From: Takakia lepidozioides
Taxonomy: Eukaryota; Plantae; Bryophyta
Length of the DNA stretch: 64,000 nucleotides
Direction of reading: 5' to 3'
Assembly (NCBI GenBank): GCA_030704615.1
Contig: CM060733.1
Span: 14,074,001-14,138,000, forward strand
The notes beneath the pieces are model-generated. The model saw only the letters and a list, made by a program, of their open reading frames with translations. It ran no database searches and was not told where the DNA came from. Made by a program: the position numbers and the translations under genes. Every line of letters starts with the position of its first letter. Position 1 is the first letter of the stretch. Below, piece by piece: positions 2,635 through 61,920 of the stretch.

Positions 2635-2846
2635 CGCTGCTGCTCCTTTCTATAACCTTCCCTCTTACCCTTCTCTCTCACAACATGAGAGCAAGGAAAA
2701 ACAAGCATTTGGGTCGACGAGGAACAGGGGATTTCATCCTCAAGTCCTGCTGGATACGATGAATGTCGACCTACTGCGGAGAATAAGGAAGGAAGGAAAG
2801 AAAGAGAGAGAGAGAGAGAGAGGGAGTGAAGATTGTGGAGGAAGAC
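2635..2846. promoter_or_regulatory. Short divergent intergenic region between NDUFB10 and the ecdysoneless-like gene, with a (GA)n tract
   Basis: Start codons at 2634 (-) and 2847 (+) are separated by 212 bp; GA repeat at about 2803-2822. Confidence 0.6.
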
Positions 2847-16820: not shown

Positions 16821-18200
16821 CGGCAATACCGTTGACTGTCGTCCGGAGACCCATGCCCTCGACGATGCCTGCTGCCGATTAAGATAGACTGAACCGTCCG
16901 CCACCATCACGTCCAGGCCTACAGTAACGCTATCTGAATATGTCATAAGCAAATCCTGCTCCCCAAATTTTCCCTGGTAGATAAAATCCAAGAGATGAGA
17001 CAACACTGAACTCTGGTATGTTTGGTCTCTCCTCCTTTACTCTCATCCGTAACAAATACTGAGACAACAGGCTTCTGAAGACACAAAAACAGAGGCACTC
17101 ATATACACAAGTAGAACAAACTTCCCGAACAAGACGTCACTAATTAAGAATACTCGGGGTCAGACATTTTTCGGTGAGAAATCTGCTCTAGACTCGAACA
17201 TCTAGGTGTGCATTCGAAGAGAACTGAGGGAAAGACGAAGAGAGAAAGTCACTACAAATGGCGCACCTCTCCATTGACAAGGAAAGACTTAGCAATGAAC
17301 CCTGGACTCCATATCAACAAGCTTCTCCAAATCTAGTACAGCATCATACAAGGAACCCAAGATTCCGATCCCCTCAGAAGGAGATACTCACCACTGAATC
17401 AACTCCTCGCCAGCAAACGGAATCTTCTCCAATGCTAGCACCCACAAAAACCCACAAAACTCACAGAAAGACAATCGACACTGAATCCGAGCTTCTCCAG
17501 AGCCTACAAACGCCCCTCACAAGACAATCAGCTCGGATGCATCCCACTCCATCATCTTCTCCAAAGGTCTACCAAGAGCTCGAGAAAGAGCTCGTGGTTA
17601 TCGTGGGTCCCTTTGCACGCCTGCTTATCATTGATACGACCGTTTTAAACTAATACTATTCTGCCACTTGTCCCCATTGACCGGTAGATGCCGGTAGCCG
17701 TTCCACCTGGGTAACAGTGTAGGGACTTGGTTTCGTGCAAACCATTGTTGTATGTGAGACTGTGGGTCACATTCATGAAGCCCCAGTTGAAAGCTGTTTG
17801 ACCTTTCCCCCATATGAACAAGGAGTGAGTCTTCCTAATTGTCGGTTTCTGTTGTCCACAGTTGAGATGAAGCAAAAATGAGAAAGAATATGACAGGATT
17901 GCAGAACTGAGTCCATAAACAGGACACAGAAAGCGAAGGGGCTGTGTTTTGTGTGGTGCCAGACAATCGCGTCTGGATGCAGAACATAGGAGTGTACAGC
18001 AATGGACACAATAGAGAAAGTAGCAACTGAGAAAATAGGTGCAGAACATTATCTTCATGAAAAGTAAATATTGCACTTGCATATCCACCACCTACAAAAC
18101 CTACAATGACCAAGGTAACTGGTGGCTCATCAAATTCAAAGACCACCAGAGATTCATATTAGCCTCTTAATAAGCCTCTTCAGTAAGCTCCTCTGATGCC

Positions 18201-21200
18201 TCACTTCTCTAAAAATGATATTGTGAACTGCTGAAATGATCTACAAGACATAGGGAACAGAATCTGATTGGCTTGCAAAGTGCCCGTCAACATTGCAACC
18301 ACCTCTTCCAACATATAGATCTCGTCCACTTGCTGCTGGTGGACCCAATCCTCAACCAAACTGCCACAAACACCATAATTGTACTTAGATGCATCACCTC
18401 AACAACCCTAGGATGTCCTTAAGGAGTAAATTGCCCAGCCCAACTGCGCAATAAGAAGGATTGAACTTGTCCAGGTCAACAGTCAACCCTAGAAACATGA
18501 CACAATTCAACTAAAAGGCTATATGCTGTTTCACGGTGGCACGCCTAAAACTAAGAGCTCCAAAGGAACATCACAGGCTTCACCATAACTAAGTCACCAG
18601 GCCACACATACAAAGTGGGCACCTCAATGCAAGAACAGCTGCTCTTCGCGGAAATCATCGAGGAAAACACAAAAGTAACACCCCCAAAGTCAGATATTGA
18701 AAAACCGGAAACCACAAGAACACCACAAAGCCATCTTCTAATTAGGATAGGAAGTACCACATACAAGAGGGAGCCCCTGCATCCATCTCTCTCCCTCTCT
18801 CACACACACAAGTACTTGCACACGAGACAGTTCCATGTCTGCCAATAATGCTTCTTTTGTTTCTTGTAAATTCTTGTCTCTGTTCTTCAAGCTTTCCATA
18901 CAGTTCTTATTTGTCTTTCTTTCTTTCTGTTGCAAGTACCAAATGTACCAACGTGCAGTCCAGACCCAGATTATGTCTTTCAGGTGTATACTTCCATGGG
19001 CTTGAGTTTTGTTTCAGTGCCTAGATTCCTTCTTTGTAAACCATCCTCTCACCTCAATTCATCTGCTCCAAACTTGCTGCAGTCACGATACATGAGCTTG
19101 ACCACAGGCTGCAAAATGGCAGGGACCACCTCCCTTGCTGATACTAGAGAGCTCGCTCTGCCCATCCCTCCCCTCATTCCTGACTCTTCACCTGAGACTT
19201 GCAAGGTTTGTTGCCTGTCTAGCCCATCCAATGCAGCTTCAGGCCCTGGTACATAATTTGTGTTACATGCACCTGTGCAAATCCATGCATCTTGGTTGAG
19301 AAGAACAAGCTGTAATAGGGGCGCCTGTGATGTGAAGCTTCGTACCAGATAGCGACACGAGCCAGTGCCCTCCGTGTTGGCTTGCAGTTGATGGGTGATC
19401 ACTCTCTCAAGAGTATGGTGCCTGGCAGTACAATAAAACAGTAAGTGACAGTAATTGTGCAGTGAAAGACAGACGGAGAGAGACAGGGAGACCCCCAGCA
19501 AGGAGGAAGACTTGTGCTCATTGATGTGTGCACTGTAAGATCCCTGTGAAGCTTGAAAGACACTAAGCAACTGACTCTGAGCGAAACTCTACATGTACTG
19601 ACAGGCACTTGACTGACTCTGGCTATTTCACATGTAGCCAGAAAGAATTGGAGTTCACTGGAATGGCACCTGGGGTGTTCTAGAGGAGCCAGGAGAGCTG
19701 CATACATAAATTCAGAAAGGGTTCCATCAAACCTGAATACATTAAGAGAGCTGCGGGAAACTTCATCAGTTGAAATGAGGCATTTAAAAAAATGCACCCC
19801 TTTCTTGCTGCTGTTTGGATGGCGTTCAGTTTCCTTTGAGCTTGCACCCACCAAAGATGAGCAAGCATTACAAAAGTAAGGGTCCCATTCAGATGCTTCG
19901 GACGGACCCCCTGGCCCTGTCATAAACCCATTCCCCAGGCTCATAGAACCTGTTTCAGCTTCTGGCAAACTGTGCATGCCTCTGGCGGCAGATTCTATGT
20001 TGGCTTTTGAAGGAATAGTCTCCTTGAAGCACTTACTTGACATGCAACAAGAATTGAGATTTTCTAGTTCACCCTGTATCCCCTCCATGCCAACCCACTC
20101 ATTAGTAGCTTGTGCAGGATCTCTAAGAGCAACTGGGTGTTGAATTGTAGTTGTGAAGGCCCCTGTTGGAAATATGCAATCAGGAGTCACAGAACTTTCG
20201 GTTGCTGTATCTCTCCAGCATTCCCTGTCAACAGCGGAGGAGACATGCAGCTCTTCATCTCGACAACGACTACCTGAAACATCACAGCTAGTGATAAGCA
20301 GGCCGGTTTCACCACCCACCTTGTCATTCAGTAGTCCCAAAGCACCAACATCGAAATTTCCCACCGTTTCTAGATTCTGCGGCATGTGGTGCAAAGGTTG
20401 TTCCAGGGACTCAGGATTTGTGTTTCCAACCCATGAAATCTCTTGAAGTCCCTGGATTGGTGTATTTAGGTCAGCCTTGTTGTTTGGCCTCGTGCCCTCT
20501 GGATACATGTTGGAAGATGTAACCTCTCTGGTGCATGGATCACCAAATATACCTTCTTTATCAACAAAATCATCCTCTCTGTTCCCCAATCCCTCCTCTT
20601 TTGACATATCAGGATTTGCCCTAGCATCTTCAATGCCCACTCCAGCTGCTGTATCAGCATCGCAATCTAGAGCATCTTTGACTGTGATGTTGCAAGCCCC
20701 ATCACCCAAGATATCATTGTGATGCACAATGCAAGTGGTGGATGTCACAAGGCATGTCCCCTCTGCTGGAACAAAGAGCTGCTGGAACTGTGCAACAAGA
20801 GACTCTGTCTTGACACCAAATGAGGAACAGCAACAAGACCCAAACCAGTGTTCTGCTACTTCCCGCCAGTCTGCTGAAGGAAGTTCTACAATGCGCCTAC
20901 AAGCCACCAGAACTTCTTTAAATCCTCCAGAAAGAGTTAATTCTACTACAAGATGACTAATTTCAAAGACAAGGACTCTGATGAACAACTTTACACCCTA
21001 AGATCATAAACTTTCAATAAAGCCCAATCTTTGGTCAAAGCCCACTCATGACTGATTGTGATATGAAGTTTCTCTTCCTTCCTATCCATGGATCTGTTTA
21101 TGTCAAGTCACAGCCAGAATTTTACAAAGTAGAGTTATGGAAATGTGCATATTCATTGGGGCTATGATTACCTGAATGGAGTGTGTGTGAGCTTAGACGA

Positions 21201-27065: not shown

Positions 27066-27709
27066 GCCCTTGAGTTTGAACGATGTGACAGTATCTGAGG
27101 GGACTGGTGACATTGAGACAGCATCAACTGCGCTATGTCACACCAACACTGTGCCTTACTGGTGTATGTAGGGACTTCCCAGTGTTGAATAGGCAAGCTT
27201 TAGAGGGTTTCCAAAGTTGAGCAGGAAGAGAATTTAATAGATATGCCACATTCACATTCTTACCATGGATGGCAGCACTCTGAGGAGGAAGAAGGGAGCA
27301 GGACGGCACATCTGAGTCAGCACCAGAGAGTACACAGCTGCTGGTCGAGCTCTCAAGCAGTAACTGTGAGTGGCTGTCCAGCACAACTAATGTTCGATTG
27401 GATTGACCTCATTATGTCACCTTGCCAGATTCGCATGTGCCTGGGGTCCCTTGGAATTAAGAGAGTTTCACCCAAGGTGGATGGTTTAACCCAACCTCTG
27501 ACCCACCCATGGCTAAGCAAAGCCGGCTGATGATTGTGAGTCATATGGCTGAGACAAAGAATCTGCTATTGAACTATAGGAATTGGGAATGATTGAAGGA
27601 CAGACTAGATCAAGTTCCTAGGGCAGTACATCGGTGTGCTGTGCAAAGATTAGAGCTGAAGTAGACTGATTGTTAAGACATTTGGCTCCACTTCAAGGTC
27701 TGGATCTTG

Positions 27710-29445
27710 GCACACATGTCCACCAGGGCAGTGTCCAGAATGACATTTGGTACAATTCCAGCTTTGATGATGTCACCATGCACCTCTTTGCCCTTTCCTC
27801 TTTGCCCTTTCCAGGGCTGCCAGGCTTGCACAAGCATTGCAAACGCACACAAATGTGATGTGGTTGCGCTTCACCCCTTCCCCCATCATTTGCTCATAGG
27901 TCTCCAAGGCCTCCATCCCGTGCCCCTGCTGTGCATATCCTGCAAGCATGGCATTCCATGACACCAAATCTCGTTCAGCCATATTGTTGAACACTCCCTC
28001 CGCATCCTCAATGCTCCCACATTTGGCATACATGTCCACAAGGGTATTGTTCAGAATCACATCTGGTACAATTCCAGATGTGACGATGCAACCATGGACC
28101 TCTTTGCCCTTTTCCAGGGCTGCCAGGCTTGCACACGCATTGCAAACGCACACCAACGTTATGTTGTCGGGCTTCACCCCTTCGCTCATCATTTGCTCAT
28201 AGGTCTCCAAAGCCTCTATCCCGTGCCCCTGCAAGCATCGCACTCCACGACACCACATCTCGTTCAGCCATAGTGTTGAACACTCCCTTTGCATCCTCGA
28301 TGCACCCACATTTGGCATACATGTCCACCAGGGCAGTGTTCAGAATGACATCTGGTAATTTGACAGGCATTCGCCTTTTTTCCTCGGTTGTCCCACCATT
28401 GACTGGGGTCAGAAAAGTATTCATTCCACAGCTTCTCCTCATCTCTGTTACCTGTTTTTGGATACTTTCCTGTTGTGACATTGGCAGTATCATGTCAAAG
28501 TCACTCCAAACTATCAAAGATTCACGCAACCAGCTAACTTGCAGAATTCAACATGGAAATTTAGGGCCGATTCTGATAAGAGGGAAAAACAGGGTGAAAT
28601 GTGGTGCCTTCATTAGCAGTGCCTGATTTTATCAATTGTGCCGCTGCTGCTGCGGCTTCCAGTTGACCATCTACCCATGCAGGTTTCTTGTAGCTATCCT
28701 TCCACAGGGAATCATAGGTAATCTGGAGCTTGAAATCTGGACCTCTACCCCTGGTCCTTCAGCTATCCCTGCCTGTGCACAAATCATGAATACATCCTCA
28801 GCCTTGCTGCTAGCAGCTGACACTGACAGCGTGAAGTTCTTCCAGCAAACACCCAAACCCTACTTTCACGTAGTTCCAATTATGATTGCATCTGCTTCTC
28901 TATGTAGTCCAACAGGCATTCACCTTTCTGTCTCCATTGTCCCACCATTGACTGGGGTCGGAAAAGTGTTCACTCCAAAGCTTCTCCTCCACGTCACCAC
29001 ATTTCATTCAGCCATTTTGTCAAATACTCCCTTTGCATCCTCAACCACATTTCACATACGTGTCCACCAGGGCAGTGTCCAGAGTGACATTTGGTACAAT
29101 TCCAGCTTTGATGATGTCACCATGCACCTCTTTGCCCTTTTCCAGGGCTGCCAGGCTTGCACAAGCATTGCAAACGCACACAAACGTGATGTGGTTGCGC
29201 TTCACCGCTTCCCCCATCATTTGCTCATAGGTCTCCAAGGCCTCCATCCCGCGCCCCTGCTGTGCATATCCTGCAAGCATGGCGTTCCATGACACCAAAT
29301 CTCGTTCAGCCATATTGTTGAACAGTCCCTCAATGCTCTCACATTTGGCATACATGTTCACAAGGGTATTGTTCAGAATCACATCTGGTACAATTCCAGA
29401 TTCGACGATGGAACCATGGACCTCTTTGCCCTTTTCCAGGGCTGC
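27710..29445 (-). pseudogene. Mosaic of PLS-class PPR gene fragments (cluster 1)
   Basis: P, L and S motifs (VSWNAMLAGYAQQGHGMEALETYEQM; ITFVCVCNACASLAALEKGKEVHG; VILNNTLVDMYAKCGSIEDA) in truncated, frameshifted pieces at about 27710-28355 and 28995-29445, separated by a non-PPR module (28356-28990). Confidence 0.88.
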
Positions 29446-30008
29446 ACCACCGATTGCACCCTACAGCTTAAACACAGGGAGAGTAAGGTCCTCTTCAAAT
29501 CCTAGAAAGTTCCTCAGTTTTAGGTTATTTGAGTTAAAATGCCCACTGCATTCCAACAACGTCGCTATCCTTCTATTATGCCCGCTAATTGACGAGCGAG
29601 AGAGAGAAGAGAGCCAGGCCCAGGATCAAAAATTACCTGCTGACTTCCACATGCCCTGTCGAGGAAATGCCTTCAGCGACAATTCGATCTGCATTTTTAT
29701 AGTGGAGGAGAGCATCTGACGAAAGACCCCACTCATCTGCACGCACCGCTTGTGATAATTCAAGAACTATTCATTCATTTAAAGTGTAGTACCTGATGCA
29801 TGATCATCAGAGGGAGGGAGATCTCTTCCGCTTCCAACAAGCCAGCAAGCATAGGATGCCAATATTTGCAACCAAAGTTGCATCAACAGCCGCAACAGCA
29901 CCCAAAATCTCGCAGGAACTATGATGATTCGCGTCTACAAAGCAAAGCCCAGGAACTCAACCAGTATACCACTCGAGCTGCGAACTTCCGTTACAACCGA
30001 CACACAGA

Positions 30009-39964: not shown

Positions 39965-42441
39965 TGATAACTACATTGCAAGCTTCAATTGAATCCCTAC
40001 AAGCCTCCATCTCTTTTAAATCAAACATGTAGTGACACATACAAATATAGAGTTCTCATGAACTTCTTTTGGTCCTTAAAAGGGCATTTTAGGGGTTTGC
40101 AAATGTATATCTCTGTAAGTGAAGAACTTGCTCTCATATTTTAGCTCTAAAAAAAAACTTTTTGGTTGACAATTGGGACCACTTTGACTTCAACTTTAAA
40201 TTCTTTGTTTTGACTCTCAAACTGTACGTATAAATTGATGGCCACAGCCAATGCATCGCTAAGTAACCAATACCCACTATATTGATTGAAAATACAATGT
40301 TGTAATAACTGGTGACAATCTGGAGGATATGACTTCAGTCGCAGTCCACGTCTTAGCATATGGGTCACGATTTTGTAGAGCGACTGTTTGATGACTGTAA
40401 CACAATAAAAATGGCTTAACGGTATCTGTTGAAATATGATGACTTTATGTTAAACAAAACGAGTTTTCACAGGATTATTCAATTTTCGAGGACGAAACTT
40501 TAGAATCCATGCATACTGAATTCCATTCTTGACACTCTTGCCTGAACAAATCCATACAAAATTATTAGACAAAATTTGTGTCACATGAAAAATACCATAG
40601 CAGATCTGTATATGAAAATGTAATATAATTCTCTAATTTTCTCATTGTTCGTAGAATATTGGCATGTTTTGCTTAGTGCGTGCCTAAAACGAGCACCTTT
40701 AAAAATAAACTAGATCAGCAAACGCTTCACATGCGATGACCATTTTCAGCCCAACAGTCATGGTTCCCAAACTTGTGTCTTTTCCTTCACATAGCAAATA
40801 ATTTTGTTTGTGATGTCAAACCTGTCAAAGAGTGCACGAAGTTGAAGTGGTTAGGCCTGCACTAGTGATGTCCTTAGCCTCGAACAATCCGACATTTATG
40901 TGTCTTGATTCCCAATTTGTAATCAAAAAATTGATTATCAATGCAAAGGTGTCCACCTTAAGTACTCCAAACCTCATAAGCCACAAATTTGTTACACTAC
41001 TCAGATGGAAGTATCATTTGACAATGAGCAATATTAAATTCTCAATAAATGCTTTTTGGTGCTCATAATTTTTTTAAGACACTTGATTTTAGAAAAATTG
41101 GGAAATAGTACTTGGTGCAACCTTAGTGCGTTTCTTGTGCGACTGTCTATCACTAAATTCATGAGATGCGGGGTTTATGCGGGGTGAATGCAGGGTTGAC
41201 TGGACCAAAATAGACATTACTGGCATAGTTTTAGATGACTGCAATTGATGATGTCATCAATTGAATTTGAATTAACTCATTAAAACCAGCAAACATACAT
41301 ATCATTGGATTTCTAGCTTCAATACGCACCCATAACAACTCTCAATCATGAATCCGATAAGAAATGACTCCGCTATGGACTTTTGAACACCGTCATTGTG
41401 GACTGTTATCGTAGTAAATGGAATTACAATGGACTCAAGTTCTCATCTATGCCATTCGTGAATTCCATTGAAATTTGGACATATGATGGTCATTTTGGTC
41501 CACATCATAGGTATGGATTTGAAGTGGCAAAATCATTTGTTATTTGACTCATATGGACTAATATATGTAAAAACAATAGGTGTTTTTTGAAAGTCCATAG
41601 CTCATCTTGTTTTTTGGATTTTGGGTGTCATTGTTTTTCTAGAAGTATAAAAACCTATAATCTTCAATGGCTAGGTGGCATATTGATTTTTTTTTGTAAA
41701 CTCAAATTTTTAGTTTTTCATAATTTCTCTAAATAATAGACTAATATATTTAATAAATTGTATCTTTAATATTTGGGGTAGGACTCTTTACTAAATATGT
41801 TCAGTATACCATTATCTATCACCAAACAAATATTTTGAATAATATCCTCAATGTTTTGTTTTTGGTCATAGACTTCTATGGAGCAGGATCTACCGTTTTT
41901 GGTCCACTCAACCCTGCAACTGTCGTGTGTTGAACAATGTTAAGTTCGAAAGTGTATCTACTGGTCACCTCTGCATGTTCATTTTCAGTGTACTTCTTCA
42001 TTGTAGTGGTGTCAGATAACTTATTATACATAACAATGCCCTTCCTACCCTTAGTCTTGTTAGCCAAAACCTCACGACCACAATAGGCAAGAAAACACAA
42101 AAGACATCTTCGAGTCCACATAATAACTTGCTGATGCAGAAGTACAAGTTACTTACGAATCCTGCCCTCTTTTGCTGCCAAATCCGTTTGTACTTGTTGA
42201 CTAAGTCCAATGCTTGATGATACACATTGGATCTGGGAAACATTATAGGGTTAGCTTCAACATGAGAAGTATTATCAACCTCAAGTAGTTGGACAGGGTT
42301 GGTCTTATTTACGCCCGACTCCATAACTTCCATTTCTACCACTTGTTGCGATTCAACATGCAAGAATTTTCCCATATCCCAAGTAGGATGGGTGGCCATT
42401 GTTTCATATTCATAGATCTTCATAGAATTTACAATACTCAA
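39965..42441 (-). mobile_element. Degenerate hAT transposase (BED finger plus catalytic core), interrupted by a TIR element
   Basis: CLLC...KGRKGIVMYNK..TTTMKKY.E.EH (BED); KKRTKVAPSTISQFF; QKAFIENLILLIVK; DTFALIINF..NWESRHINVGLFEA; HALSKTCQYSTN; RPRKLNNPVKTRF; GYWLLSDALAVAI. Confidence 0.85.
41182..41925. mobile_element. Non-autonomous TIR element, copy 1 (about 740 bp, 4-bp TSD)
   Basis: TIRs GGGTGAATGCAGGGTTGACTGGACCAAAA / TTTTGGTCCACTCAACCCTGCAACTGTCG; flanks TGCG / TGTG (one CpG-type mismatch); hAT coding sequence resumes on both sides. Confidence 0.85.
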
Positions 42442-47480: not shown

Positions 47481-47815
47481 TAGGATAATATAATAGAATA
47501 TAATGGGAATTAATAGATGGATAGAACATGGATGAATAGATGGATGGATAGAAATTATTATATATATTTATGCATTCATGGATAGATAGATAATATATAT
47601 ATATATATATTAATTTTTAATATAAATAAATTAACAAATATATTGATGTAGAAATATATTAAACTATATTTTTATTGAATAAATATAAAAATACTTCATA
47701 TTTCACCCTAACCAATCAATCTAATATTGTGTGCAAATAACACTTCATTCCAAGGTTTTGGAAGGTCTACCACGTGCAATTTGTGCTTCAATGCCCAATC
47801 CACTATCAAATCCAA

Positions 47816-48485
47816 TGTCGTGCGCATACATATCGCTACACAACTACATCGCTGTCCAAAACCACCCAACATATGTGCACACCACACACTAGTATACCAC
47901 TAGTCCAACCACTAGGCTACAACTAGTCAGTCACTAGGCTGCCACTATGCTGCCCACTATGGCAGTCACTAGTCCACACAATGATAAAGGAGAAGAATAC
48001 AAGCACAAGCTCATGCGAGATCACAAAGCTGAAGCATGCATATATAAACTCATCACTCAAATAGAAGTCAAGCCAAGTGCACCCCACGCCATGGGGAATC
48101 CACACTACGGCGCCATAGCTAGGCGCGGTGAGGCTCAACTCGAGAAAGATGAGCCTCCCGCGCTTGCCGTGAAGATAACCACTCCAGGGCCTAAATCTGC
48201 CTTGACCCCTGGATTGACACTTGGGCCAATCCCAAATATCAATATGTAAAAGCTAGTTATTTCCTAGTTAGTTTCACACTAGTGGTAAAATAACTTGACA
48301 GCTATCGTGCGCATACATATCGCTACACAACTACATTGCTGTCCAAAACCACACAACACATGCATGAGCACACCACATACTAGTATACCACTAGTCCACC
48401 ACTAGTCCAACCATTAGTCCAACCACTAGGCTACAACTAGTCAGTCACTAGGCTGCCCACTATGGCAGTCACTAGTCCACACAAT
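47816..48485 (-). repeat. 3' terminal repeat block B1-gc-A2-B2 of the split-repeat retroelement
   Basis: Two B copies (starting TGTCGTGCGC / TATCGTGCGC on +, rich in CACTAGT) flank one A copy (TGATAAAGG...AACTTGACA). Confidence 0.9.
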
Positions 48486-48495
48486 CGCCCCCCTA
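48486..48495 (-). other. Polypurine tract
   Basis: Minus strand TAGGGGGGCG directly before AT-TGTGTGG, the start of B1. Confidence 0.65.
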
Positions 48496-48529
48496 GCTGG
48501 TGCTTAGGTCCGTCTAAGTCCAGGTAGCC

Positions 48530-49270
48530 GGGTGAATGCAAGGTTGATTGGACCAAAATGGACGTTACCACCACAGTTTTAGATGACTGCAATTGATAGC
48601 GTCATCAATTGAAATTGAATTAACTCATTAAAACCAGAAAATATATATGTCATTGGATTCGTAGCTTCAATACGCACCCATAGCAATTCTCCAATCATGA
48701 ATCCAATAAGAAATGACTCCACTATGGACTTTTGAACACCGTCATTGTGGACTGTTACCGCAATGAATGGAATTACAATGGACTCAAGTTCTCCTATATG
48801 TCATTGGTGAATTCCATTGAAATTTGGACACAAGGTGGCCATTTTGGTCCACATCATTGGTATGGATTTGAAGTGACAAAATCATTTGTCATTTGACTCA
48901 TATGGACTAATATATGTAAAACAAATAGGCATTTTTTGAAAAGTCCATAGCTCATCTTGTTTTTTGGATTTTGGGTGTCATTTTTTTCTAGAAGTATAAA
49001 AACCTATAATCTTCAATGGCTAGGTGTCATATTGTTGTAAACTCTAATTTTTAGTTTTCAATCATTTCTCTAAATAATATACTAGAATATTTAATGAATT
49101 ATATCTTTAATATTTGGGGTAGGACTCTTTACTAAATATGTTCAGTATACCATTATCTATCACTAAAAAAAATTTAGGATAGTATCCTCAAATTTGTTTT
49201 TGGTCATGGACTTTTATAGAGCAGGATCTGCCGTTTTAACCTTTTGGTCCACTCAACCCTGCAACTGCCC
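48530..49270. mobile_element. Non-autonomous TIR element, copy 2 (about 740 bp, perfect AGCC TSD), nested in the retroelement
   Basis: Colinear with 41182-41925; GGG...CCC ends; AGCC at 48526-48529 and 49271-49274. Confidence 0.88.
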
Positions 49271-49487
49271 AGCCACAAGATGTGATAATGACCATAGCCT
49301 CACTAAGTCCTCCACCACTGTCCTACTACACTCAAACTCGATAGATCAAGAGGCCGGGTGCAAGAGTTGTCCCATCGTTAGTCGTCGTCTTGCAACCTAT
49401 GAACTTGAGCCTAGGATCTCGTGTATTGACTCCTATGAGCTTGGCCTCCCATGTCTTGTTAGCGGCCTCTAGTCATGTCCACTGCCA

Positions 49488-49551
49488 CTATCCCAAGCAG
49501 TGTGGACACAACCAATCTCCATCATGAACCTTCTCAAGAGGTGGAGTCAAG
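49488..49551 (-). pseudogene. PHD-finger C-terminal half ending in a stop codon
   Basis: LTPPLEKVHDGDWLCPHCLG* matches the PHD consensus CLxPPLxxxPxGxWxCPxC. Confidence 0.7.
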
Positions 49552-52500
49552 GATATGCACAGCAAGGGCGTGGGATGGAGGCTTTTGAGAACTATGAGCA
49601 AATGATGTGCAAAGGGGTGAAGCCCAACCACATCACATTTGTTTGTGTTTGCAATGCGTATGCAAGCCTGGGAGCTCTGGGAAAGGGGAAAGAAGTCCAT
49701 GGTGACATCGACAAAGCTAGAATTGTACCAGATGTCATCCTGAACACTGCCCTGGTGGACATGTTTGCCAGATGTGGGTGCATTCAGGATGCGAAGGGAC
49801 TTTTCCATACTCTGGCTGAACGAGATGTGGTGTCATGGAATGCGATGCTTGCAGGGTATGCACAGCAGAGGCACAAGATGGAGGATTTGGAGATCTACGA
49901 GCACCATTACACTTGTCCACTTCCAACCTTTGGTTGACGGTAATTTCCTTCTCGCTCCAATGTTGTTGTGGACCCCCTTCTTGGTGTTTTTCCTTGACTT
50001 GAATGTGAGCAAGGACATCACAGCCCAACATTGCGTTAGATAGATTTGAAAGCTCGTTGAACTTGCTCTTCCCGAAGCTGTGTTTAAGTTTTGTAATCTT
50101 GGGTTAAACGAGTGTGGACTGCAATTTGACATTTCGGGCAAGAATGATGTGGTTATAACTTCTTTGTGGGAGCTGCCCATACCATGTGACCAATGGCAGT
50201 AGACCACGTCTACAAAAGCTTTGGAACAGATAAGGGGGTGAGATGTTGGAAGTGTGGAAGGAGTAGAGTATGAGACTAACTAGTAGCCCTAGACGCCCTC
50301 TCCAGCAGTCAGAACTTGGTATGAAATTTGTATACGATAGTTATCTCACCGACCCAGACAGGGAGAGTCATTAACTCGTGGTGAGCTACGGGAAATTCTT
50401 CAGTGGACATGTTTTATGGAATACCTAGCTGGATCGAGGAGGTCGACCAGCAGGAGAGTGACGCACTTCTTCAGCGCATGCATCAGCTTGTACAAAATTA
50501 TAAGATCAGATCTCCTCCAATGAATGAATGTTGAGAGAGAATAAGAGAGTTGCACTCTGTTTCTAAATTGACGAATATAAGTGTGACACGGATAGATACT
50601 GCTTGTGCACATCCCACAAAAATTTGGGAAAAGAGAGAACAGATCGGGTAAATTGGTTATCACAAACGAGCTGTAATGGTATGGCCTTGAATCAGCGGGT
50701 AGAATCACTGGTCCATGCCAATCGGAGCATCAAACTACCAGTAGAGCTGGTATTGAACTCATTTGTGACTGTGAATGTATCACACTGAGAAATCCGTACT
50801 GCCAATGACGCCTCAAACCATGAGCAACCTGGAGAGACAGCAGTTGGGCCGACATTTGGGATGATTTAGCAACCGACTTAATGGGCGTTCTATAGCATTG
50901 ACTATCTCACATCCTTACACGCACACAGATACACTCAATGAGTATTAAGTATCTCAGAATAGTTGGTGCTCTATCCTGATTGGGGAAGGGTGTTCAGCCC
51001 GACCACATCAGGTTTGTGTGCGTTTGCAGTGCGTGTGCAAGCCTGGCAGCCCTGGAAAAGGGCAAAGAGGTGCATGGTTGCATCGCCAAGGCTGGAATTG
51101 TACCAGATGTGATTCCCTGTGAATCAATAGCTACAAGAAACCTGCATGGGTAGATGGTCAACTAAAGGCTGCAGCTGCAGCGGCATAGTTCATAAAACCA
51201 GGCACCTCAACCATGCCCACAACTTCTGAAAGAGGATCAAGAGAGGGAGCCAATGAGGCATTTCAGCAGATTCAGGTACGTATGTCTGTCCCTTGCTTAA
51301 GTGCATCAAGATGGAAGGTCTGGACGTTGGAAAGCAGATGCTCACTCACATTATCCAAAGTGGATGCACGCCAAATGTGTTTCTACTCAACACCCTTGTC
51401 TCCATGTATGTCAAGTGCGGGAGCATCATGGAAGCCGCAACAACAATGCTCCTTCACTTAACTTGCCCACCAGATTCCAAGCTACTCATGCAAGAGACAA
51501 AGGTAAGTATCTAAATCTGTTGAATTGTTTCCTTGGTTTATAGGGGGCAGGGCAAAGAATCATAGGTAGTTTTGTGCTTGAAATGCAGCCCTCTTGCATG
51601 AATCTGAACCCACATTCCATCCCTGCTCCTTCAGCTATTCCTGCCAAGAGAACTCCACGACACCCACATCTTGTTCAGCCATACTGTCAAACACTCCCTT
51701 CATACATGTCCACGAGGGTATTGTTCAGAATGACATGTGATACAATTGCAGCTCTGACAATGTCGCCATGGACCTCTTTGCCCTTCTCCAGAGCTGCCAG
51801 GCTTGCACACGCATTGCAAATTATCAAAGGTTTACTCAACCAGTAACTTGCAGAATTCAACGTGAAAATTTAGGGCCAATTTTGATAAGAGGGAAAAACA
51901 GGATGAAACGTGTTGAAGAAGGTTGCCTTCATTAGCAATCCCTAATTTTATCAATTGTGCCGCTGCTGCTGTGGCTTCCAGTTCACCATCTACCCATGTA
52001 GGTTTCTTGTAGCAATGGATCCACATGGAATCATAGGTAATCTTGTGCTTGAAATCCGGCCCTCTTCCAGGAAACACCTCAACCCTAATGATGAGAGGGA
52101 AAACTGAAATAGGTTGAAAAAAAATGTCACCAATTTAGGGCCGATTCTGATAAGAGGGAAAAACAGGGTGAAATGCGTTGAAGAAGGTGCCTTGAGTAGC
52201 AGTGCCTGATTTTATCAATTGTGCCGCTGTTGCTGCGACTTCCAGTTGACCATCTACCCATGCAGGTTTCTTGTAGCTATTCTTCCACATGGAGTCATAG
52301 GTAATCTGGAGCTTGAAATCTGGCCCTCTTGGATGAATCTGGACCCACACTCTATCCCTGCTCCTTCAGCTATCCATGCCTCTGCACAAATCATGCATAC
52401 ATCCTTGCCTTGCTGCTAGCAGCTGACAACGACAGCCTAGAATTGTCCCAACAAACAACCCAACCCTACTTATCACACTAGTTCCTATGCTGACTTGCAT

Positions 52501-52930
52501 CTGCTTCCGGCAGACATTCACCACGGTGCAGCTGAGCGGGCAGAGATTGAAACACGATTGAAATGCGGCTTGCTACAAGCTAACTCTCCCAAGAACCTTG
52601 TAAACATTAGGAAGAATACCCATGGAGGATTTGACTGACCATGAACCCAAGAGGACCTCTTGTGTCTGCTGCTTATGTCTGTAGTCATGTCGGATCGGTC
52701 TGTGAGAACCACCACGGTGTAGCTGAGCGGGCGTCGATTGAAACACGGACTGACCAAGCTGACTCTCCCAAGAACCTTATAAACATCAGGAAGAATACCA
52801 AATCATGGTACTAATAGGAGCCAAGAGCCCACATTTGTTGCGCTTCGCCCCTTCCTGCATCATTTGCTCTGCAAAGCCTCCATCCCACGCTTCTGCATAT
52901 CCTGTGATCATCGCGTTCCATCTCTCATCT
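49550..52930. pseudogene. Mosaic of PLS-class PPR gene fragments in both orientations (cluster 2)
   Basis: PPR pieces at about 49550-49905 (+), 50985-51115 (+), 51270-51440 (+), 51650-51820 (-), 52800-52920 (-); the non-PPR module of cluster 1 recurs at 51115-51215 (+), 51555-51645, 51840-52070 and 52133-52510 (-). Confidence 0.85.
50040..50854 (+). mobile_element. 3' remnant of a second LTR retrotransposon (PPT plus about 610-bp LTR, 50244-50854), possibly copia-type
   Basis: AAGGGGGTGAGA directly followed by TGTTGG...CCGACA; upstream ALPEAVFKFC.LGL weakly resembles a copia RNase H end. Confidence 0.4.
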
Positions 52931-53302
52931 CTCGACTTGATACTACTATGAAAATGTGCAGGAGAAAAAAAAAAAAAAAAAACCAGAAAGAAGCCAAGTC
53001 CCAACCCTCTAATGGGCAACCCTATAAGCAACTTTTTAAAAACAATTAACCTTTTGGTTACCAAGCTTGCACTAGAAGTCATTCCGGTGACTATTTGGTG
53101 GCAAGCTCGTGTTGGTCAACCATCATTGACCACCCTTCCCTCTAGTGCGGAGCCATACAGTCATGACAACGTCTACCAAAATAGTCGCCCAGAGGACTAC
53201 GTAGTCACGTAGTCATTTCAACGACTACTTGAAGTCCCATTTGGTCCAAAAATACAGGGAAGCCATGGTCAAAGTCAGGAAAACCATGACTACCGCGCCT
53301 CG

Positions 53303-56113
53303 TCAGTGAGATATACCGCGATCTGTTGTAGTGCAAGCTTGTTGCACCCGTCGATCAGCCACCCGCTGCAAATCCTTGCTCGTGCCCCATAATGGAGTCT
53401 GAGCAACCATGGCAGGCAACTCCGCCATACTATACATGTCATCCTGCTCTCCTGGAGGTGTGTCATCCTCTGAATGAGCGTTGCCCTCTAGCAACTTTTC
53501 AGGCTAAGTCACTGCAGCTGTGAATGCTGCTAGTGTCGGCATCTTGCCTTGCTGGGCAACCGCAACTCCTCCTATGAACGTCACAGGGAGCTGCACACGC
53601 CGGCCTTCCCTTGACTGCCATCCAGGCCTATAGGAAGCTGACTCCTCCCAAAAATCCAGGGTGAAGCCCATGGGGTACAACACTGCTCCACCAACTTGGA
53701 CATTGTATGAGACCGCGTCTGTCACAATGGCCTTGGCTCGCATCACTGAGCCATCTGTAGGGTGATCCGGCCATAGTCTGATAGCCAACTCACGTCGTGT
53801 CATGCCCCGAGCCTGCTCCGATCCTCCCAGAGACGTCTGTATCTGGAAAGGACAAGGTTCCATATCTGCCTCCGTGAGGCCCAAGCCTGCAATAGCAGCT
53901 CTGCCCAGCATCAATTTGGCTGAGCTCCCGAGTCCAACAAGACCCACAGTGGCCGGTACCTCTTGTCTGCCGGTCCACTCAAACAGAAAATGCCATGATC
54001 CTGGTTGTCTAACGTGATAACTCGAGGTGTCACCATGGCGTGCTCAATGGTTGGCCTAGCTGGCAACTCCATCAACCTGGCAGCTGCAGCTTGCCATGGC
54101 GCCGCCGTGGCAATCTTGACCCTCAAATCCGAGGATCCCTCCGGCACTACACCTCCCACTATCTCCGCAGAAGATGACGTAACCTCCCCACTCTCACAGA
54201 GTGTAGCTGCCAGCCTGAACACCTCAGCTGGTCTTACCCCCGGCATCGCAATCATGGCCGAGAACAATGGAGCCTGGCACACAGATGTGGCCGCCCCCAG
54301 TAGCACACTAGTTGCCGTAGCCTTGGCAACACTAGGTAGTGGTGTTGTCCATGTAGCTCTCCCCAATGGCATAGTAATCTCCGCCTCGGTAACAGTCGGG
54401 CGAGAACTAGGTGCCATGGATGGCGTCGATACTGTCTCCGCCAATGTGAATGACTGAGGAAGCCTGGCCTGACGGCTTCCTTCCGCATGCTGTGGATCCA
54501 ACTCCACCTCTGCACTTCGTTGCTCGGGAACTCGTGCTGCTCCTCGGGTCACTCCCACCGCCGACTCCACTTGCACTAGTAGTAGTGCTGCCCCGCACAT
54601 GAATCCCATGCCTCCCATATTTCGTCCCTCAAGAGCAGGAGGTGGACCATCCGGCCTTAGAGCCGGTAACCACCTAAGTTGTAGCCATGGCAGCGAGCCT
54701 GTGCTCTAGCTGCTGAAGCCGGTGGCCATGCCTTGGTCAACACCCTGACCTCCGCGTCCTTGGCCATGTTGAGCTTGCCCATGGCCTGTACCTGGTGCCT
54801 GGCCACCTCGTCCTCTCTGGGCTGCTCCCCCGGCCACCATTATTCCCTTGGAACTGGCCTGGGCGCAACTCAGGATGCAAACCATAACACTGGGCCTCTC
54901 CATGCCCGTGTTTGCCACAATGCCCACACTGCAATTGTGCATGTGCCGGCTCTTTGCCTCCCTCCGGGCAATCCTTCTTGACACGGGGTCCAACACATGT
55001 CCAACACACCACCTCCGCCCGTTGTTGGCTTACAAATGAAGGGAGAGACCCCTGCATGTGAGGTCCTCTCTGTCCTTCCCTGAGCTTCACCTGAGCCCCC
55101 TTGTTGCCTTGAGCACGTTGAGGTAGTGGTTGGCTAGGAGCACCACTACCCCGTGGTGTCTACTTAGCAAATCCCACCATGACCACTCGTTCCTCCACCA
55201 TGTTGAGCTCTATCCACTCTGCCAGCAAAAACAAATTTGCTAAGGTGGGTTGGGCTGCTTGTAGGAGAGTTGCATCCCGCACCCTTCGCCTCAGCTCCTT
55301 GTCCAATATCCCATACCAGAATTGGACTGCCTGAGCTTCCGTAACCCCTTGGGTTACATTTATGAAGCGCCTCATGCAAGTGAAAAGTCTCCCTCAAGCT
55401 CTCAGTCGGCTTCCGTTGGAACTCTTGCAAGCTCCGCACTTCTTTGTCCTCACCCCTTGGTAATTCCATCTCAACTCTTCGAAGAATTCTACAACAAGGT
55501 TGAAGGCAGGCACGGGTACTGGTGCTGGTGCGGCAGTGGCTTGGGTGGACCTTGTAGCTACGGTACCACTAGTCCCACTAGTCCCATTGCTGCTTGTTGA
55601 AGCTGCCGGTGCAGCTGCAGGTGTAGCCACTGCCCTCGTGGCTCTAGTGCCCCTAGTCATGGAGACATAGTCAGGTGACCAGTACATCCTCTACTCCTCA
55701 ATCTCAGCCTCATGCCCCCGCCTGAACTCATGGTAATCATCCATGGGCGGCCCCTCAAGGTACTGAAAAAGCCCCTTCCATGTCATAAAAGGCGTAAACA
55801 GTTGTGGATTGCGCATTTGCTGCAAATCACACCAACTATCAAACTCTTGGATAAAATCATCCAAGGTGCCCACCGCCCCAGAGTACCTTCGTGGCCCCTT
55901 GGTAGCTCCATTCATCTCCTCCATTGTGTCCCACAACAATGGCAAAGAAACAACTTGCACCGCCGGTGTGAGTCCTCCTGATTCACAATCCGAATCAGAA
56001 CCTTCCGTAGAAGACACAGGAGGTGAAGGTGCCCTAAACAGCACACCTCGTCTTGTGTACCCACTAGTATCGCTAGTGCTCGAACCGGCACTCTCCCCAA
56101 CAACTAGTGGCAC
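53303..56113 (-). pseudogene. Retrotransposon Gag (capsid-like region plus CCHC knuckles) and aspartic protease, disrupted by stops and frameshifts; Ty3/gypsy-like
   Basis: LDDFIQEFDSWCD; FQRKPTESLRE...AQAVQFWYGIL; CGHCGKHGHGEAQC knuckle; protease LLDSGAQP...PCPFQIQTSLGG...YNVQVGGAVLYPMGFTLDFW; no RT, RNase H or integrase seen. Confidence 0.85.
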
Positions 56114-56839: not shown

Positions 56840-57460
56840 GCCACCACAGACCAGCACAGGCCCACACAGATCACTGATCACAGGCCCACACAGGTCACAG
56901 CCCCACAGACCACAGCCCGTCACAGCCCATCACAGCCCCACAGGCCACAGATCACAGCCCGTCACGGCCGGTCACAGCCCCACAGGCCACAGGACACAGC
57001 CAGTCACAGCCCCAAAGGCCACATGGCACAGCCCATCACATCCCCTCACAACCTGTCATAGCCTGTCATAGTCCATCACAGCCCCAAAGGCCACATGGCA
57101 CATCCTGTCACAGCCCTATCAGGTCACAGGGTCACAGCCCCACAGGCCACAGTCCGTCACAGCCCCAAAGCACAGCCCCTCACAGGCCACAGGGCACAGG
57201 TCACAGCCTATCACAGCCCGTCACAGCCCCAAAGGCCACAGGGCACAGCCTGTTACAGCCCTACATAGGTCACAGATCACAGCCCCGCAGGCCACAGCCT
57301 GTCACAGTCCATCACAGCCCCACAGGTCACAGCCTGTCACAGCCCCAAAGGCCACATGGCACAGCCCATCACAACCCATCACAGCCTATCACAGCCCTAC
57401 ACGGGTCACATGATCACGGCCCCACAAGCCACAGCCTGTCACAGCCCATCACAGCCCCAT
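56840..57460. repeat. Low-complexity TCACAGCCC / CACAGGC minisatellite in the retroelement 5' leader
   Basis: Dozens of CACAGCC variants in tandem. Confidence 0.9.
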
Positions 57461-58843
57461 CCATGGCCGCTCATGGCAGTTTAGCCATTTCTCCAAGGGG
57501 TTTAGCCATGCCAAGCTAGGGTTTGTGTCTCTTGGACTCTAGGCTTCTTTGCACCGAGTTATGGCGGCTGTGAGGAAATCAGCGAGGTATTCTTGCTCTT
57601 TATGGCTCCCACACACCACCAATAGTAGCTCTAATTCATGAGGAAGATGGTTGCCACAAACCAAGCCTTTTTTCTCACTTAGACTCCCCAAATACGCCAC
57701 TAAACTCAATGGCAAACAACCAAGCCTTGCTGGTTTCCAGCCCTTGTGAGCATTCATTCAAGCGCTCTCCTTGGCCATAGCATATGTCTTAGAGCCTATT
57801 CCAGCCCCCTACACCTGCCACTTCAAGATCCATGCTCTATCTAGGCTTGAGGTTGAAACCCCAACTCACATATGCCCTACAAGTGCTTTTCTTTTACCCA
57901 AGTGGGAACCAGCCCTAGCCCTTCCATTTTAGCTCTCTAAAGCTGAAAACAAAAACCCAATGGACTGAAGGCATGCTCCACACTTGCCCTACAGAGAAAC
58001 CAGTCATTTCCTTCCATTCTTGCACCCCCAAACCTGAAAGTACAAGCCTTCAACAGGCTGAAAGCATGCTCCACACATGCATTGCCCTCACATAAGAGAA
58101 ATCAGCCCTTCCCTCTTCCTTGCTTGCCCTCCAAGCTTGAAGATGGAAGCTTCAATGGGCTGCATGCATGCTCCACACATGCAACCCCTTCACACAAGAG
58201 GTATCAGCCCCCTATCTTGGCTCCTTGGCTCCTTGATGTTCTCTAAGACAAGACTAAGCACTCCACAGCCTTTGCCAAGATCCTGAAACCCTAAGGCTTA
58301 TATTTCTAGCCACAAGACACTTCTCTTGTTGTGCAAGAGCTCTTCTTCCAAGCTCTGAAACCCTAGGTACAAATTCCATGGCCTTGCCGCACCTCTTAGC
58401 TCCTGTTCCAACCCTGCTCTTGCCATGGCAAGAGCCCTCATACCACTGGAGTTTCAGATTGAAACCCCCAACTCAACATAGCCACAAATGCATTGGCTTG
58501 ATACAAGAGAAATCAGCCATCTCTCTTCACTCATACCTCCTTATGAGCTTGAAGTTGGAGCTCCCGATAACTGTGACTTGCATCTAACACCCTCGCAGCT
58601 TCATACTCACCACACTTGGCTACCATAGCGTTGAGCTATGCAACACTGCTCTCAACACAGGCTGCCTGCCTCTATATCCATTGCAAACCTGAAACCTGTT
58701 TGCCATCGTACCCTATCCGCTTTGGATAGGCTCATGCACTGATCCCTGCACTCTAAGCTGAGTTGATTCTCATCTGAAAATACACAAGTGCTAACAACTA
58801 ACTCGTATCTAGCATTCACAGATACGAGCTCATCTTTCTCGAG

Positions 58844-59160
58844 TGATAAAGGAGAAGAATACAAGCACAAGCTCATGCGAGCTCACAAAGCTGAAGCATG
58901 AACTCATGCATATATAAACTCATCACTCAAATACAAGTCAAGCCAAGTGCACCCCACGCCATGGGGAATCCACACTACGGCGCCATAGCTAGGCTCAACT
59001 CAAGAAAGATGAGCCTCCCGCGCTTGCCATGAAGATAACCACTCCAGGGCCTAAATCTGCCTTGACCCCTGGATTGACACTTGGGCCAATCCCAAATATC
59101 AATATGTAAAAACTAGCTATTTCCTAGTTAGTTTCACACTAGTGGTAAAATAACTTGACA
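58844..59160 (-). repeat. 5' terminal repeat A1 of the split-repeat retroelement
   Basis: 317 bp nearly identical to 47982-48300; begins TGTCAAG and ends TTTATCA on the minus strand. Confidence 0.92.
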
Positions 59161-59164
59161 CCAA

Positions 59165-61797
59165 AGTCTCATTTTTTTAAGTTTGTTATGGCCTTTAAAA
59201 CTCCTCTGCATACTTTGTAAAATTCCCAATGTCCACACAAGAATTTCGCACTTGATTTTCTTGCACAATGTAAAAAATGCATCACAAGGCTGTTTTTCAA
59301 AATTCAAAAATTTGAAAGGTCAAAGTGTAAATCACAATCATAATCTCAATCTCTTACCTTGTTCATTTCGTTGATATGTAAACTGGTCTTCTCTAACAAT
59401 CTTACAGATTTTCGTACATTGTCATCCTGCAGTAAACAAAACACCATGTTAATTTGCTTTCAGTTCATTGAATACCTGAATCAAGTAACAAATTATTCTA
59501 TAAACACATTACCTACACATACCTTTAAGCAATTTAGAGGAGATGCTGGTTCAATCACCTAAAGATTAGATATGTCATTGACCTGCAACACTACCATTTA
59601 AAATTGAGAGTTTTACAGTATCATAGATACAGTTCTAAAACTAAAAAATTGATTTATACAATGTATAAATTTAAATTTAAAAATTTGATGTGTGACAAGT
59701 CATACTTACTGGCTCTTTTGGAGATTCTGGATCTGTATGCACAACATGGTCTGTCACTGGTTCAATTGTAGATGTCTCCTGCTCCCATAAATCTCCAGTA
59801 TAAAGCTTTTTCTACATGATAAAAATATAGGAGTTTAATGTACAAGGAACAAAAATTAATCATGTTAAAATTAACGTTTTGTGTTGGTTAAAAACTACAG
59901 TTATAAGAGCTAATGTTGGCAGAATACCAATATTTTATATAAACATCACAGAAGTAAACAAAAAAAATTGAACTAGTATTTATATTGTAGTTTAGCACAG
60001 GTTTAAATAAAGTACCTCACCTTTTCTTGGACAATTAGTGTTTTAGGTGGTGGTACCTCATCCTCCTTAACATCTCCACTGGAGAACTTTTCCTGAACAA
60101 GTAGTATCAATAAAAGTAAGTGTAATTGAACTTATGTAATTCAGATCCAAAGATAAATTGAATTATTTAAAAACCTAAACTAAAGTGAAAGACAAAAGTA
60201 AATTAAAAAAAATACTTACATCAACATGTTCAGAAGCTAAGAAGCTTGGAATGGGATATATACTTGTAACAACAGCTGGTATCTCTAGGGTATGACCCTG
60301 CAAAAATCAACAACCAATTTTAAAAGTTACAGTAATGAAGAATCAACAAATTTTGAGATATAGTAATACTTACAAGAAAAAAAATTAAGAGTAAAATTAC
60401 TTTCTATTGTCCTTCACAACAGAAATAATACAGACTATATAAATTTTCAGAATACTTTACCTCAGTGAGCAGTTTGACCTGGAGCTTGTAGTCTTTGAAT
60501 TGCTGGCCACAGGGAATATATAAGTTTTCCACACCTTCAAGAATGCTCAGAACACATACTCTCTATGATTTGTAAGGATGTACTCTTAAAATTTCAAGTG
60601 ACATTACATATCCAAAAAGCATGGAATGCTCTTCAAAACCAAGAGTAGACTTTCCAGCACATTTATCAGGTCTGAAACACGTGGTATCCCTCAGAGAAAG
60701 TTTTGTAGTAGTAATGGGATGTTTTAAACCCCACAGTTCAAGGGTATGAACCCCATTCTTACATAGTGTAAGAATCTCTTGGTCATCTTTGGAATATTGA
60801 ACAGGTCTATTAATGATCGCCATTTTCTTGGACTTCAATGGTACTGACATATCCAAATCTTTCAAAGCTGCAGACCTTTTCACACCTGTGTCCCTCTTGG
60901 TATTTTTTTCCTTCTTCCCATTCACATAATGTTTTGTTTCTAAAAACCAGTTGTAAATGTCATCTGTCTTCCACCTCAACTGAGTACCTGTTTTGTTGAA
61001 CACCAATGATGGAAAAGATGGTTCTCTCTCCTTGATAAAGATTTCCAGAGATTCTTGGGTACTTTTGTCATGCCTAAAATTGGTCTGATAGAATGATTGA
61101 ATCAGAGGATTCTCAACATCATAGAACCAACCTCTAACAATGGACTGATTGAAGGTAAATGCTTTGTGTACCTGAGGATGAAACCGTTTCAAATACCTCT
61201 TGCCGTAAAGATCAACATTGTCATCTGCCTCATGTTTATAAGGACGTGGTTTGAAAATCCTCTCGTAGCTGACATCTGGATCAAGTGCACTCATTCCAGT
61301 CGGTTTTGCATCACCTGCATCACTGGCATCCGTATCCAATCGACATACTCCAATCGATTTTGAATCACTTTCGCCACAACTCTTACTCCTTTCTTTAGAA
61401 CTCATTGCCATGCTTGATTTGGACTTTTCAAACATTTTCATACACACTTTTGGCTTTGAAACTTGTACTTCGTCTGTATGTACAGAACTTTCATGAGCTG
61501 CATTTTATCATTTTGAAAATGAAGAACATTACCAAGAACCAAGGACTCTTGAATCTGTGGACTGTTTGGATCAGAGTATTCGGCAATCCAGCCTAACAAT
61601 GCTTTTACATGCTTCAAAATTTTCATACCTAAGTCCTTCATGTCTTCTCCCTTCAAATCTAATAAATCATTTCCATTAACTTCAGCTTCAAGAAAGCTTT
61701 CTATGTAATCTGTGCATCCCAAAAAAGTTTCAAGAAAATAAGCTACCTCTGTAAATGACCACTTTAAAATCTCACTATGAGGAGGACGGTTTTCCAT
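59165..61797 (-). pseudogene. Decayed multi-exon gene with an N-terminal SAM (sterile alpha motif) domain
   Basis: KWSFTEVAYFLETFLGCTDYIESFLEAEVNGNDLLDLKGEDMKDLGMKILKHVKALL fits the SAM consensus; followed by a frameshifted 294-aa ORF and several small exons separated by AT-rich GT-AG introns. Confidence 0.6.
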
Positions 61798-61920
61798 TCT
61801 ACCTAAGTAAAACAGAACTATACATATAAAATACTACATATTAGAAAAACACACTAGAGGTTGAAAGCCCAATACTAGAGGCCAAACACTAAACTGGAAA
61901 CTGAGAACAAAAGACCAAAA

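Follow-up and report, generated by a model that had tools for sequence, protein, structure and literature searches.

How does an LTR retroelement begin reverse transcription when no tRNA-type primer-binding site (PBS) follows its first repeat? The question is raised by a gypsy element on the minus strand of the window, by which we mean the whole 64,000-nucleotide stretch of Takakia lepidozioides DNA analysed here. A sequence-only reading of this stretch had proposed that the element self-primes in the manner of the Tf1/sushi group of gypsy elements. From the analysis of the locus, of its family and of more distant relatives, we conclude that the element very probably self-primes. Self-priming matters in this case because the PBS fixes the right end of the cDNA and the polypurine tract (PPT) its left end, and neither of these is the integration site.

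Layout of the element

Read on the minus strand, the order of the element is A1, PBS, leader, gag/protease, a region of PPR-gene fragments, PPT, B1, GC, A2 and B2. Repeat A1 (58844-59160, minus strand; 317 bp, TG...CA) forms the 5' end of the integrated element, and repeat B2 (47816-47981, minus strand; 166 bp, with a CA end) forms its 3' end. B2 is joined without a spacer to A2 (47982-48300, minus strand; 319 bp), and a GC spacer (48301-48302) separates A2 from B1 (48303-48484, minus strand; 182 bp), the terminal CA of which has decayed to TA in the window copy. A1 and A2 differ by six substitutions in 308 aligned bases and by two indels of 10 and 8 bp. Directly before B1 stands the polypurine-tract-like run AGGGGGGCGA (48485-48494, minus strand), which is kept in relatives. 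At the level of the family, the B1/A2 joint (48296-48305) takes the form of a 10-bp palindrome, GACAGCTGTC, in which both integration ends are joined head to head. A 4-bp target duplication, TTGG on the minus strand, flanks both ends of the element, outside the start of A and the end of the last B (left copy 59161-59164, right copy 47812-47815). Since the entire series A1-PBS...PPT-B1-GC-A2-B2 sits within this duplication, the integrated ends lie inside the repeat that the PPT and the PBS define.

The 5' leader carries a tandem array of short CACAGCC-type units (56871-57470), and is followed by a broken gag with two zinc-knuckle-like motifs and an aspartic protease (53336-55924, minus strand), with stops and frameshifts. 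No Pfam match was obtained in five gag-protease ORFs, and the similarity to relatives stops before the methyltransferase. In the internal region that follows (48527-53300), which contains PPR-gene fragments and a 740-bp repeat, DNA methyltransferase (DNMT), reverse transcriptase (RT), RNase H and integrase were not detectable. Because tblastn with four polyproteins of relatives against the window found gag and protease only, the window copy is non-autonomous. PPR-gene fragments in both orientations occupy the place of pol (49473-52500). They match at 76-91% a cluster of PPR sequence (27700-29450) at a distance of 20 kb, and a non-autonomous copy that captured host PPR sequence is possible. The 740-bp repeat is MITE-like, with inverted-repeat-like ends, and is present in two copies (48527-49267 and 41179-41922; 89%), one of them just upstream of the PPT. 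Other pieces of host genes in the window (SGT1/ecdysoneless-like, DUF538, HECT_2 and SAM domains) lie at 2787-4163, 16356-17036, 19399-20997 and 61438-61833.

A primer-binding site complementary to the element's own repeat

As the sequence-only reading had stated, no TGG is present within the first 30 nt behind A1. Directly behind this repeat lies the 16-mer GCTCATCTTTCTCGAG (58828-58843, minus strand), which is the exact reverse complement of 48139-48154 in A2. The counterpart in A1, the predicted self-primer segment (58999-59014, minus strand), differs at a single base, and the CpG-type mismatch noted earlier was located at 59002; a 17th pair is possible between 58998 and 58844, the last base of A1. 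As a chance control we took the longest perfect complement between a site and its preceding 320 nt, on both strands of the window. A 16-nt perfect complement was found at none of 127,260 positions; complements of 15 nt and of 14 nt occurred at four positions each, all of them within two inverted-repeat regions, and complements of at least 10 nt at 155 positions. The claimed match between the 16-mer and A2 thus agrees with the sequence and lies beyond the window null. A 235-nt RNA starting at 59014 is predicted to fold with the 16-nt duplex (z = -7.1), and none of 200 shuffles was as good. In plants, self-priming has been called where the PBS begins 0-5 bp behind the 5' LTR and complements it over at least 10 bp (Neumann et al., PMC6317226); here there are 16 bp, starting at the first base. 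ARAGORN found no tRNA genes in the window, and 58600-59300 gave no Rfam match near the gathering score.

The leader hairpin (58802-58828, minus strand; 9 bp in this copy) had been described as abutting the PBS. Its arms (58802-58810 and 58820-58828) are indeed exact complements, but the hairpin does not abut the site, as base 58828 is common to both. Position 58811 is G in 80% of the depth of run X1 (see below), which adds a tenth pair. The sequence of the hairpin is not kept in relatives, where weaker stems are found instead. A second site in A (about 58921-58930 in the window; 6820-6830 in the relative L038, and equivalents) pairs with the repeat end and the first PBS bases in both families, and resembles the U5-leader inverted repeat.

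The pairing and the insertion ends across the family

Further copies of the family were examined as Logan contigs from four runs of one sample (X1-X4), with thousands of contigs over the 1.2 kb around A1 (4,163 in X1). In X1, 364,728 of 367,452 depth units have G at position 59002, and in X2-X4 the share is 98-100%. Since pairing at 59002 holds for about 99% of the family depth, the mismatch is a private change of A1 in the window copy. No variant of at least 3% was present in 58828-58843 among the variants listed, and the 16-mer of A2 had two listed variants, which were below 0.1% in X1 and X3 and absent from X7, a run of another study. Depth ratios of A, B and the PBS were not taken as copy numbers. 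Run X12, presumed to be RNA, yielded seven contigs, one of them spanning the A|B joint (depth 3.7), with a drop in depth near 48080 and with changes at 48147 and 48148 within the primer segment; as these contigs show neither transcript starts nor ends, the drop was not used. The two changes are a point against self-priming.

The X1 contigs also mark the insertion ends. Loose ends before 47816 were found in 70 of them, with mixed flanks (agreement 0.41), and the B end is therefore an insertion boundary. Behind 59160, the loose ends of family contigs comprise mixed flanks and the B end followed by GC, and it is because of the latter that the joint of the family is read as the palindrome GACAGCTGTC. 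Among the variants listed for the A|B joint in the window family, none is an insertion of at least 1%; a joint of such uniformity is compatible with inheritance as well as with precise joining.

Relatives and the covariation of the pairing

The closest named relatives of the protease are Marchantia and Sphagnum proteins, several of which run gag, protease, C5 methyltransferase, RT and RNase H. The C5 methyltransferase thus lies between protease and RT in the closest relatives, and is deleted in the window copy. In a metagenome scan, 80 of 105 confirmed loci were kept (proteases about 41-56% identical); no relatives were found in viral contig and genome contig collections. The A...B-A-B layout recurs in L038/L056 (one locus) and in L018, and L006 has B-A, after which its contig ends. 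L056 encodes RT, RNase H, Integrase_H2C2, rve and PHD, and no tyrosine recombinase was found in the four L056 ORFs scanned. Among 120 matches listed of 949 RT matches, about 45 carry PHD and none PF00385 (chromodomain). The best PDB match of a relative's pol is Ty3, which indicates Ty3/gypsy only. The window and relative families have in common the purine run before B1, the B end and the GC joint, and both keep GGCTCA before and TGAGCC behind the primer segment. Target duplications are exact in the window and at five of seven independent relative loci with both ends, with one mismatch at the other two, and the NCGN pattern is seen in none of these eight.

Several loci stand apart. A third family (L030, L040 and L051, all one locus; decayed and A-rich) has A...B-A-B repeats and a G-run before B1, and was not counted; the pairing scan gave no specific site in it, and no duplication was recognisable. 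In L023 (4920-5820), inverted pieces of A and gag-protease are followed by a partial A, 10 PBS bases and B, an arrangement that resembles an autointegration or deletion product. With its PBS bases between A and B this locus was considered as an end-joined junction, and was not counted on account of its rearrangement and possible origin by deletion. L036 (at 5374) and L043 (at 7304) represent a relative with an internal deletion; its methyltransferase region runs straight into B, and the PPT is missing.

To follow the pairing among relatives, we used 17 A1 copies, which remained from 24 after three duplicates, one copy without a PBS and three without the segment had been set aside. At least nine of PBS positions 1-11 pair in 14 of the 17, always with the same place in A, and the pairing of the relative family runs to about position 20, position 12 being weak. 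Conservation of the pairing among copies, a point on which the sequence-only reading had staked its proposal, thus holds in about 99% of the depth of the window's own family and in these 14 copies. When the window family is set against the majority of the relative family, both sides differ at 9 of the 16 positions, all of which are paired in each family; with partners swapped between the families, pairing fails from position 7 onwards. Among the relative copies, nine have T:A at position 13, three C:G, three T:G and two no pair, and position 4 is G:C in one copy. The compensatory changes for which an alignment of copies had been suggested are thus present as two-sided changes among relatives, with the reservation that the covariation of the two families may represent one replacement event and not nine. 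If G-U pairs are permitted, the true site pairs better than any other site of the same repeat in 11 of the 17 copies, equals its best competitor in two and is inferior to it in four; the 11-nt test is therefore not very specific by itself, since other sites match or beat the true one in 6 of 17 decayed, A-rich copies. Owing to the decay of the copies, a strict scan for perfect inverted repeats of at least 11 nt picked up the true site in hardly any of the relatives.

The predicted primer and its start

The geometry of the duplex is that of a primer: it brings the 3' end of the complementary segment to the base that directly follows the repeat, and in both families it terminates precisely at the edge of the repeat, which is where a primer has to end. 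A GC-rich hairpin (48123-48163, minus strand; z = -3.2) surrounds the intact primer segment of A2 (48139-48154), and A1 lacks 10 bp of the 3' arm of this hairpin. For an RNA that begins with the 16-mer, binding of the A2 segment to the PBS is predicted at -20.3 kcal/mol; 12 nt give -14.6, and with at least 25 nt, which take in the upstream hairpin arm, the value drops to about -5. The modelling thus favours a transcription start near 59014, as the sequence-only reading had predicted, and a 3' primer copy that would be hidden by the hairpin. The drop in binding was not reproduced in L008, L022 and L057, and two relative copies pair poorly in cis if started only 10-11 nt before the segment end.

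In the 339-bp subfamily of the relatives, TATAAA starts 42 nt before the segment end. The usual plant TATA-to-start spacing would place the RNA start 11-13 nt before that end, which points to a shorter primer of 11-13 nt in these relatives. The homologous place in the window family lacks a TATA box; a TATA-like box, recognised by its sequence, lies 3' of the primer segment instead (58910-58917, minus strand). In the relatives, TATAAA lies upstream of the segment, and the place of this downstream box holds no TATA.

With this geometry, the family-wide conservation and the two-sided changes in relatives, the earlier claim of self-priming stands on firmer ground, and the self-primer itself remains a prediction. 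In its own right, self-priming is a known mechanism. The hairpin around the primer segment of A1 is partly deleted at 58993-58994, where 10 bp are missing between short direct repeats, and the segment is gone in 3 of 24 relative A1 copies (L018, L034 and L066); the hairpin may be a deletion hot spot after insertion.

A proposed replication route

We consider it rather probable that the window element is a gag-protease-only gypsy copy which uses a self-primer from its own repeat, and whose ends inside the LTR stem from end-joined cDNA cut by integrase. Transcription would start at the 16-mer or a few bases into it (about 59014-59010). The 5' 12-16 nt of the RNA would pair with the PBS and, once cleaved off, serve as the primer of minus-strand DNA, as in Tf1/Tf2. 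The nascent minus strand would be transferred to A2 and the plus strand primed at the PPT before B1, which would generate a linear cDNA with the true LTR B+A; standard LTR reverse transcription from such a PPT and PBS yields B+A at both ends. The ends of the linear cDNA would be joined, which would create the A|B joint, and a DDE integrase, acting in trans in the case of the window copy, would open the B|A palindrome of the left LTR and insert the DNA. The final product, A1-internal-B1-A2-B2 with TG...CA ends and a 4-bp duplication, is what is seen.

For one step of this route, the cutting of end-joined or circular cDNA at the internal palindrome before integration, the balance tips slightly in favour. 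The layout itself supports this step, and retroviral integrase can cut a palindromic LTR-LTR junction (PMC1905944, PMC4372172). Filler DNA is present at one (L018) of three independent intact A|B joints (window, L038/L056 and L018), which counts for end joining because end joining would leave such filler. The mirror form A-B-A-internal-B counts against a circle by its absence: none of 24 A1 copies has B before it, and a symmetrical 2-LTR circle should also yield this form. Also against a circle is the single B at 8 of 11 independent 3' ends of relatives, for which one-LTR circles, B-by-B recombination or assembly collapse may account.

An unlikely alternative retains self-priming and does without a free circle. 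The split layout would be rebuilt in the particle and the integrase would act on a linear A...B molecule, with B1-A2 serving as a splint, or after a template jump that copies B to the right end, as proposed for split-repeat elements of the DIRS group. DIRS-1 does restore its ends from an internal junction copy and has mostly linear cDNA (PMC7192593), and both the occurrence of one of the two permutations only (mirror forms in 0 of 24) and the apparently uniform A|B joint of the window family speak for such a route. However, the conserved PPT before B1 and the PBS behind A1 would predict a B+A LTR, and with these signals placed as they are there would be no templated way to copy B2; the filler at the L018 joint and the lack of a tyrosine recombinase in the four L056 ORFs scanned also tell against it. 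The pairing could also be structural only, with a role in packaging, dimerisation or translation control, if RNA started behind the TATA-like box at 58910-58917 and so lacked the segment. Tf1 pairs its self-primer over 11 nt, which the 16-20 nt found here exceed. The TATA-like box lies 3' of the 16-mer with none upstream in the window family, and Tf2 normally makes a primer-less RNA from a downstream start (PMC5341516). Such a purely structural role is nevertheless improbable, given a duplex that ends exactly at the repeat end in both families, relatives that have TATAAA upstream of the segment and no downstream TATA, and no other primer being evident.

Half-tRNA priming exists in moss copia lineages (PMC6317226), and a host tRNA fragment or small RNA might by the same token prime at the PBS of the window element, the complement in the LTR being incidental. 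We regard this as highly improbable: the first 30 nt lack a TGG, ARAGORN found no tRNA gene in the window, 58600-59300 gave no Rfam match near the gathering score, and from family to family the PBS follows the changes of the LTR and not a conserved RNA. Hardly credible at all is an ordinary LTR element with A as its LTR, in which B was duplicated locally by accident. It is true that TTGT, the 4 nt behind A2, departs from the left flank (TTGG) by one base only. Yet 70 X1 contigs with mixed flanks mark the B ends as insertion boundaries, another family has the same layout with a duplication behind B, and the PPT precedes B1, not A2.

Comparison with known elements

By analogy, priming of the window element likely works as in Tf1/Tf2. 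In Tf1/Tf2, in the Tf1/sushi group and in plant Tcn1, the PBS complements a segment of the 5' LTR and not a tRNA, as is the case here (PMC6317226, PMC4600332, PMC5341516). Membership of the group does not follow from the earlier link to Tf1/sushi, which is an analogy only, because relatives carry a PHD finger and a DNA methyltransferase, with no chromodomain among the matches listed. The Tf1/sushi group has ordinary LTRs, and Tcn1 also has chromodomains (PMC6317226, PMC4600332, PMC5341516), whereas the lineage of the window is set apart by PHD and DNMT in relatives, by a duplex of 16-20 nt, by a segment within a local hairpin and by a split LTR. L056 has PHD and not the chromodomain that Tcn1 has behind its integrase, and the integrated ends are the start of A and the end of B in place of the two complete LTRs of Tf1/sushi. 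Tcn1 and TAR are the plant lineages named as self-priming by Neumann et al. (PMC6317226). Phygy, a non-chromovirus of Physcomitrium, was rejected as a counterpart, as its target duplication prefers NCGN (PMC6317226) and this preference is matched by none of our eight duplications.

The lineage, one of gypsy elements with a DNA methyltransferase, a DDE integrase and a PHD finger, is most like KnitGypsy-Dnmt3. This element of Klebsormidium nitens combines a gypsy pol with a cytosine methyltransferase and a DIRS-like repeat arrangement (de Mendoza et al. 2018, PMC5890265), both of which are shared: relatives have the C5 methyltransferase between protease and RT, and the repeats run A-coding-B-A-B. 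The Klebsormidium protein P0150 is among the protease matches, and the RT matches include proteins of Klebsormidium that carry DNMT, RT, integrase or PHD. The window copy differs from KnitGypsy-Dnmt3 in having lost DNMT, RT, RNase H and integrase. In the accessible text of the original paper (PMC5890265) we found no PBS, priming, PPT, target duplication or integration mechanism, and the accessible literature on the name KnitGypsy-Dnmt3 came to one later preprint. The searchable literature, excluding subscription journals and Repbase reports, gave no priming or integration mechanism for this lineage. Gypsy-7a_cRei of Chlamydomonas reinhardtii, an active gypsy element with a PHD finger and an LTR drawn in subparts, is alike by description; the legend that presents it shows no DNMT, and priming is not discussed in the accessible text (PMC9940879).

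The order A1...B1-A2-B2 with an internal copy of the joined ends is also that of PAT-like, Ngaro and VIPER elements, the DIRS order (PMC7192593). These elements encode a tyrosine recombinase (PMC7192593), whereas the relatives here encode an rve DDE integrase, and the window element differs further by its TG...CA ends, its 4-bp duplication of varied sequence, its PPT and its PBS. Membership among DIRS-order elements was rejected on the grounds of rve and Integrase_H2C2 in L056, with no recombinase in the four ORFs scanned. For the cutting step, the nearest likeness is the retroviral 2-LTR circle junction, where a DDE integrase cuts palindromic, head-to-head attachment ends, as is proposed here (PMC1905944, PMC4372172, PMC1180852). 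The retroviral junction is an end-to-end joint and a side route, whereas the palindrome here is templated inside the LTR and its use would be the normal route.

Conclusions

Self-priming has been predicted for 12% of 13,566 plant LTR elements (PMC6317226). What is new in the element described here is the combination of self-priming with integration ends in the middle of the LTR, the route between the two being a proposal. Tentatively, and with slightly less than even confidence, we extend this proposal to an old gypsy clade of the green lineage, in which self-primed B+A cDNA would be obligatorily end-joined and a templated palindrome in mid-LTR opened by a DDE integrase, so that priming signals and integration ends would be uncoupled, and in which a hairpin that depends on upstream sequence would hide the 3' copy of the primer. 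If this is true, a DDE integrase would routinely use the internal junction of joined cDNA, which in retroviruses is regarded as a dead end or a side route, and self-priming would extend to a lineage outside Tf1/sushi and TAR. LTR finders that need a target duplication around two like repeats would then overlook this lineage.
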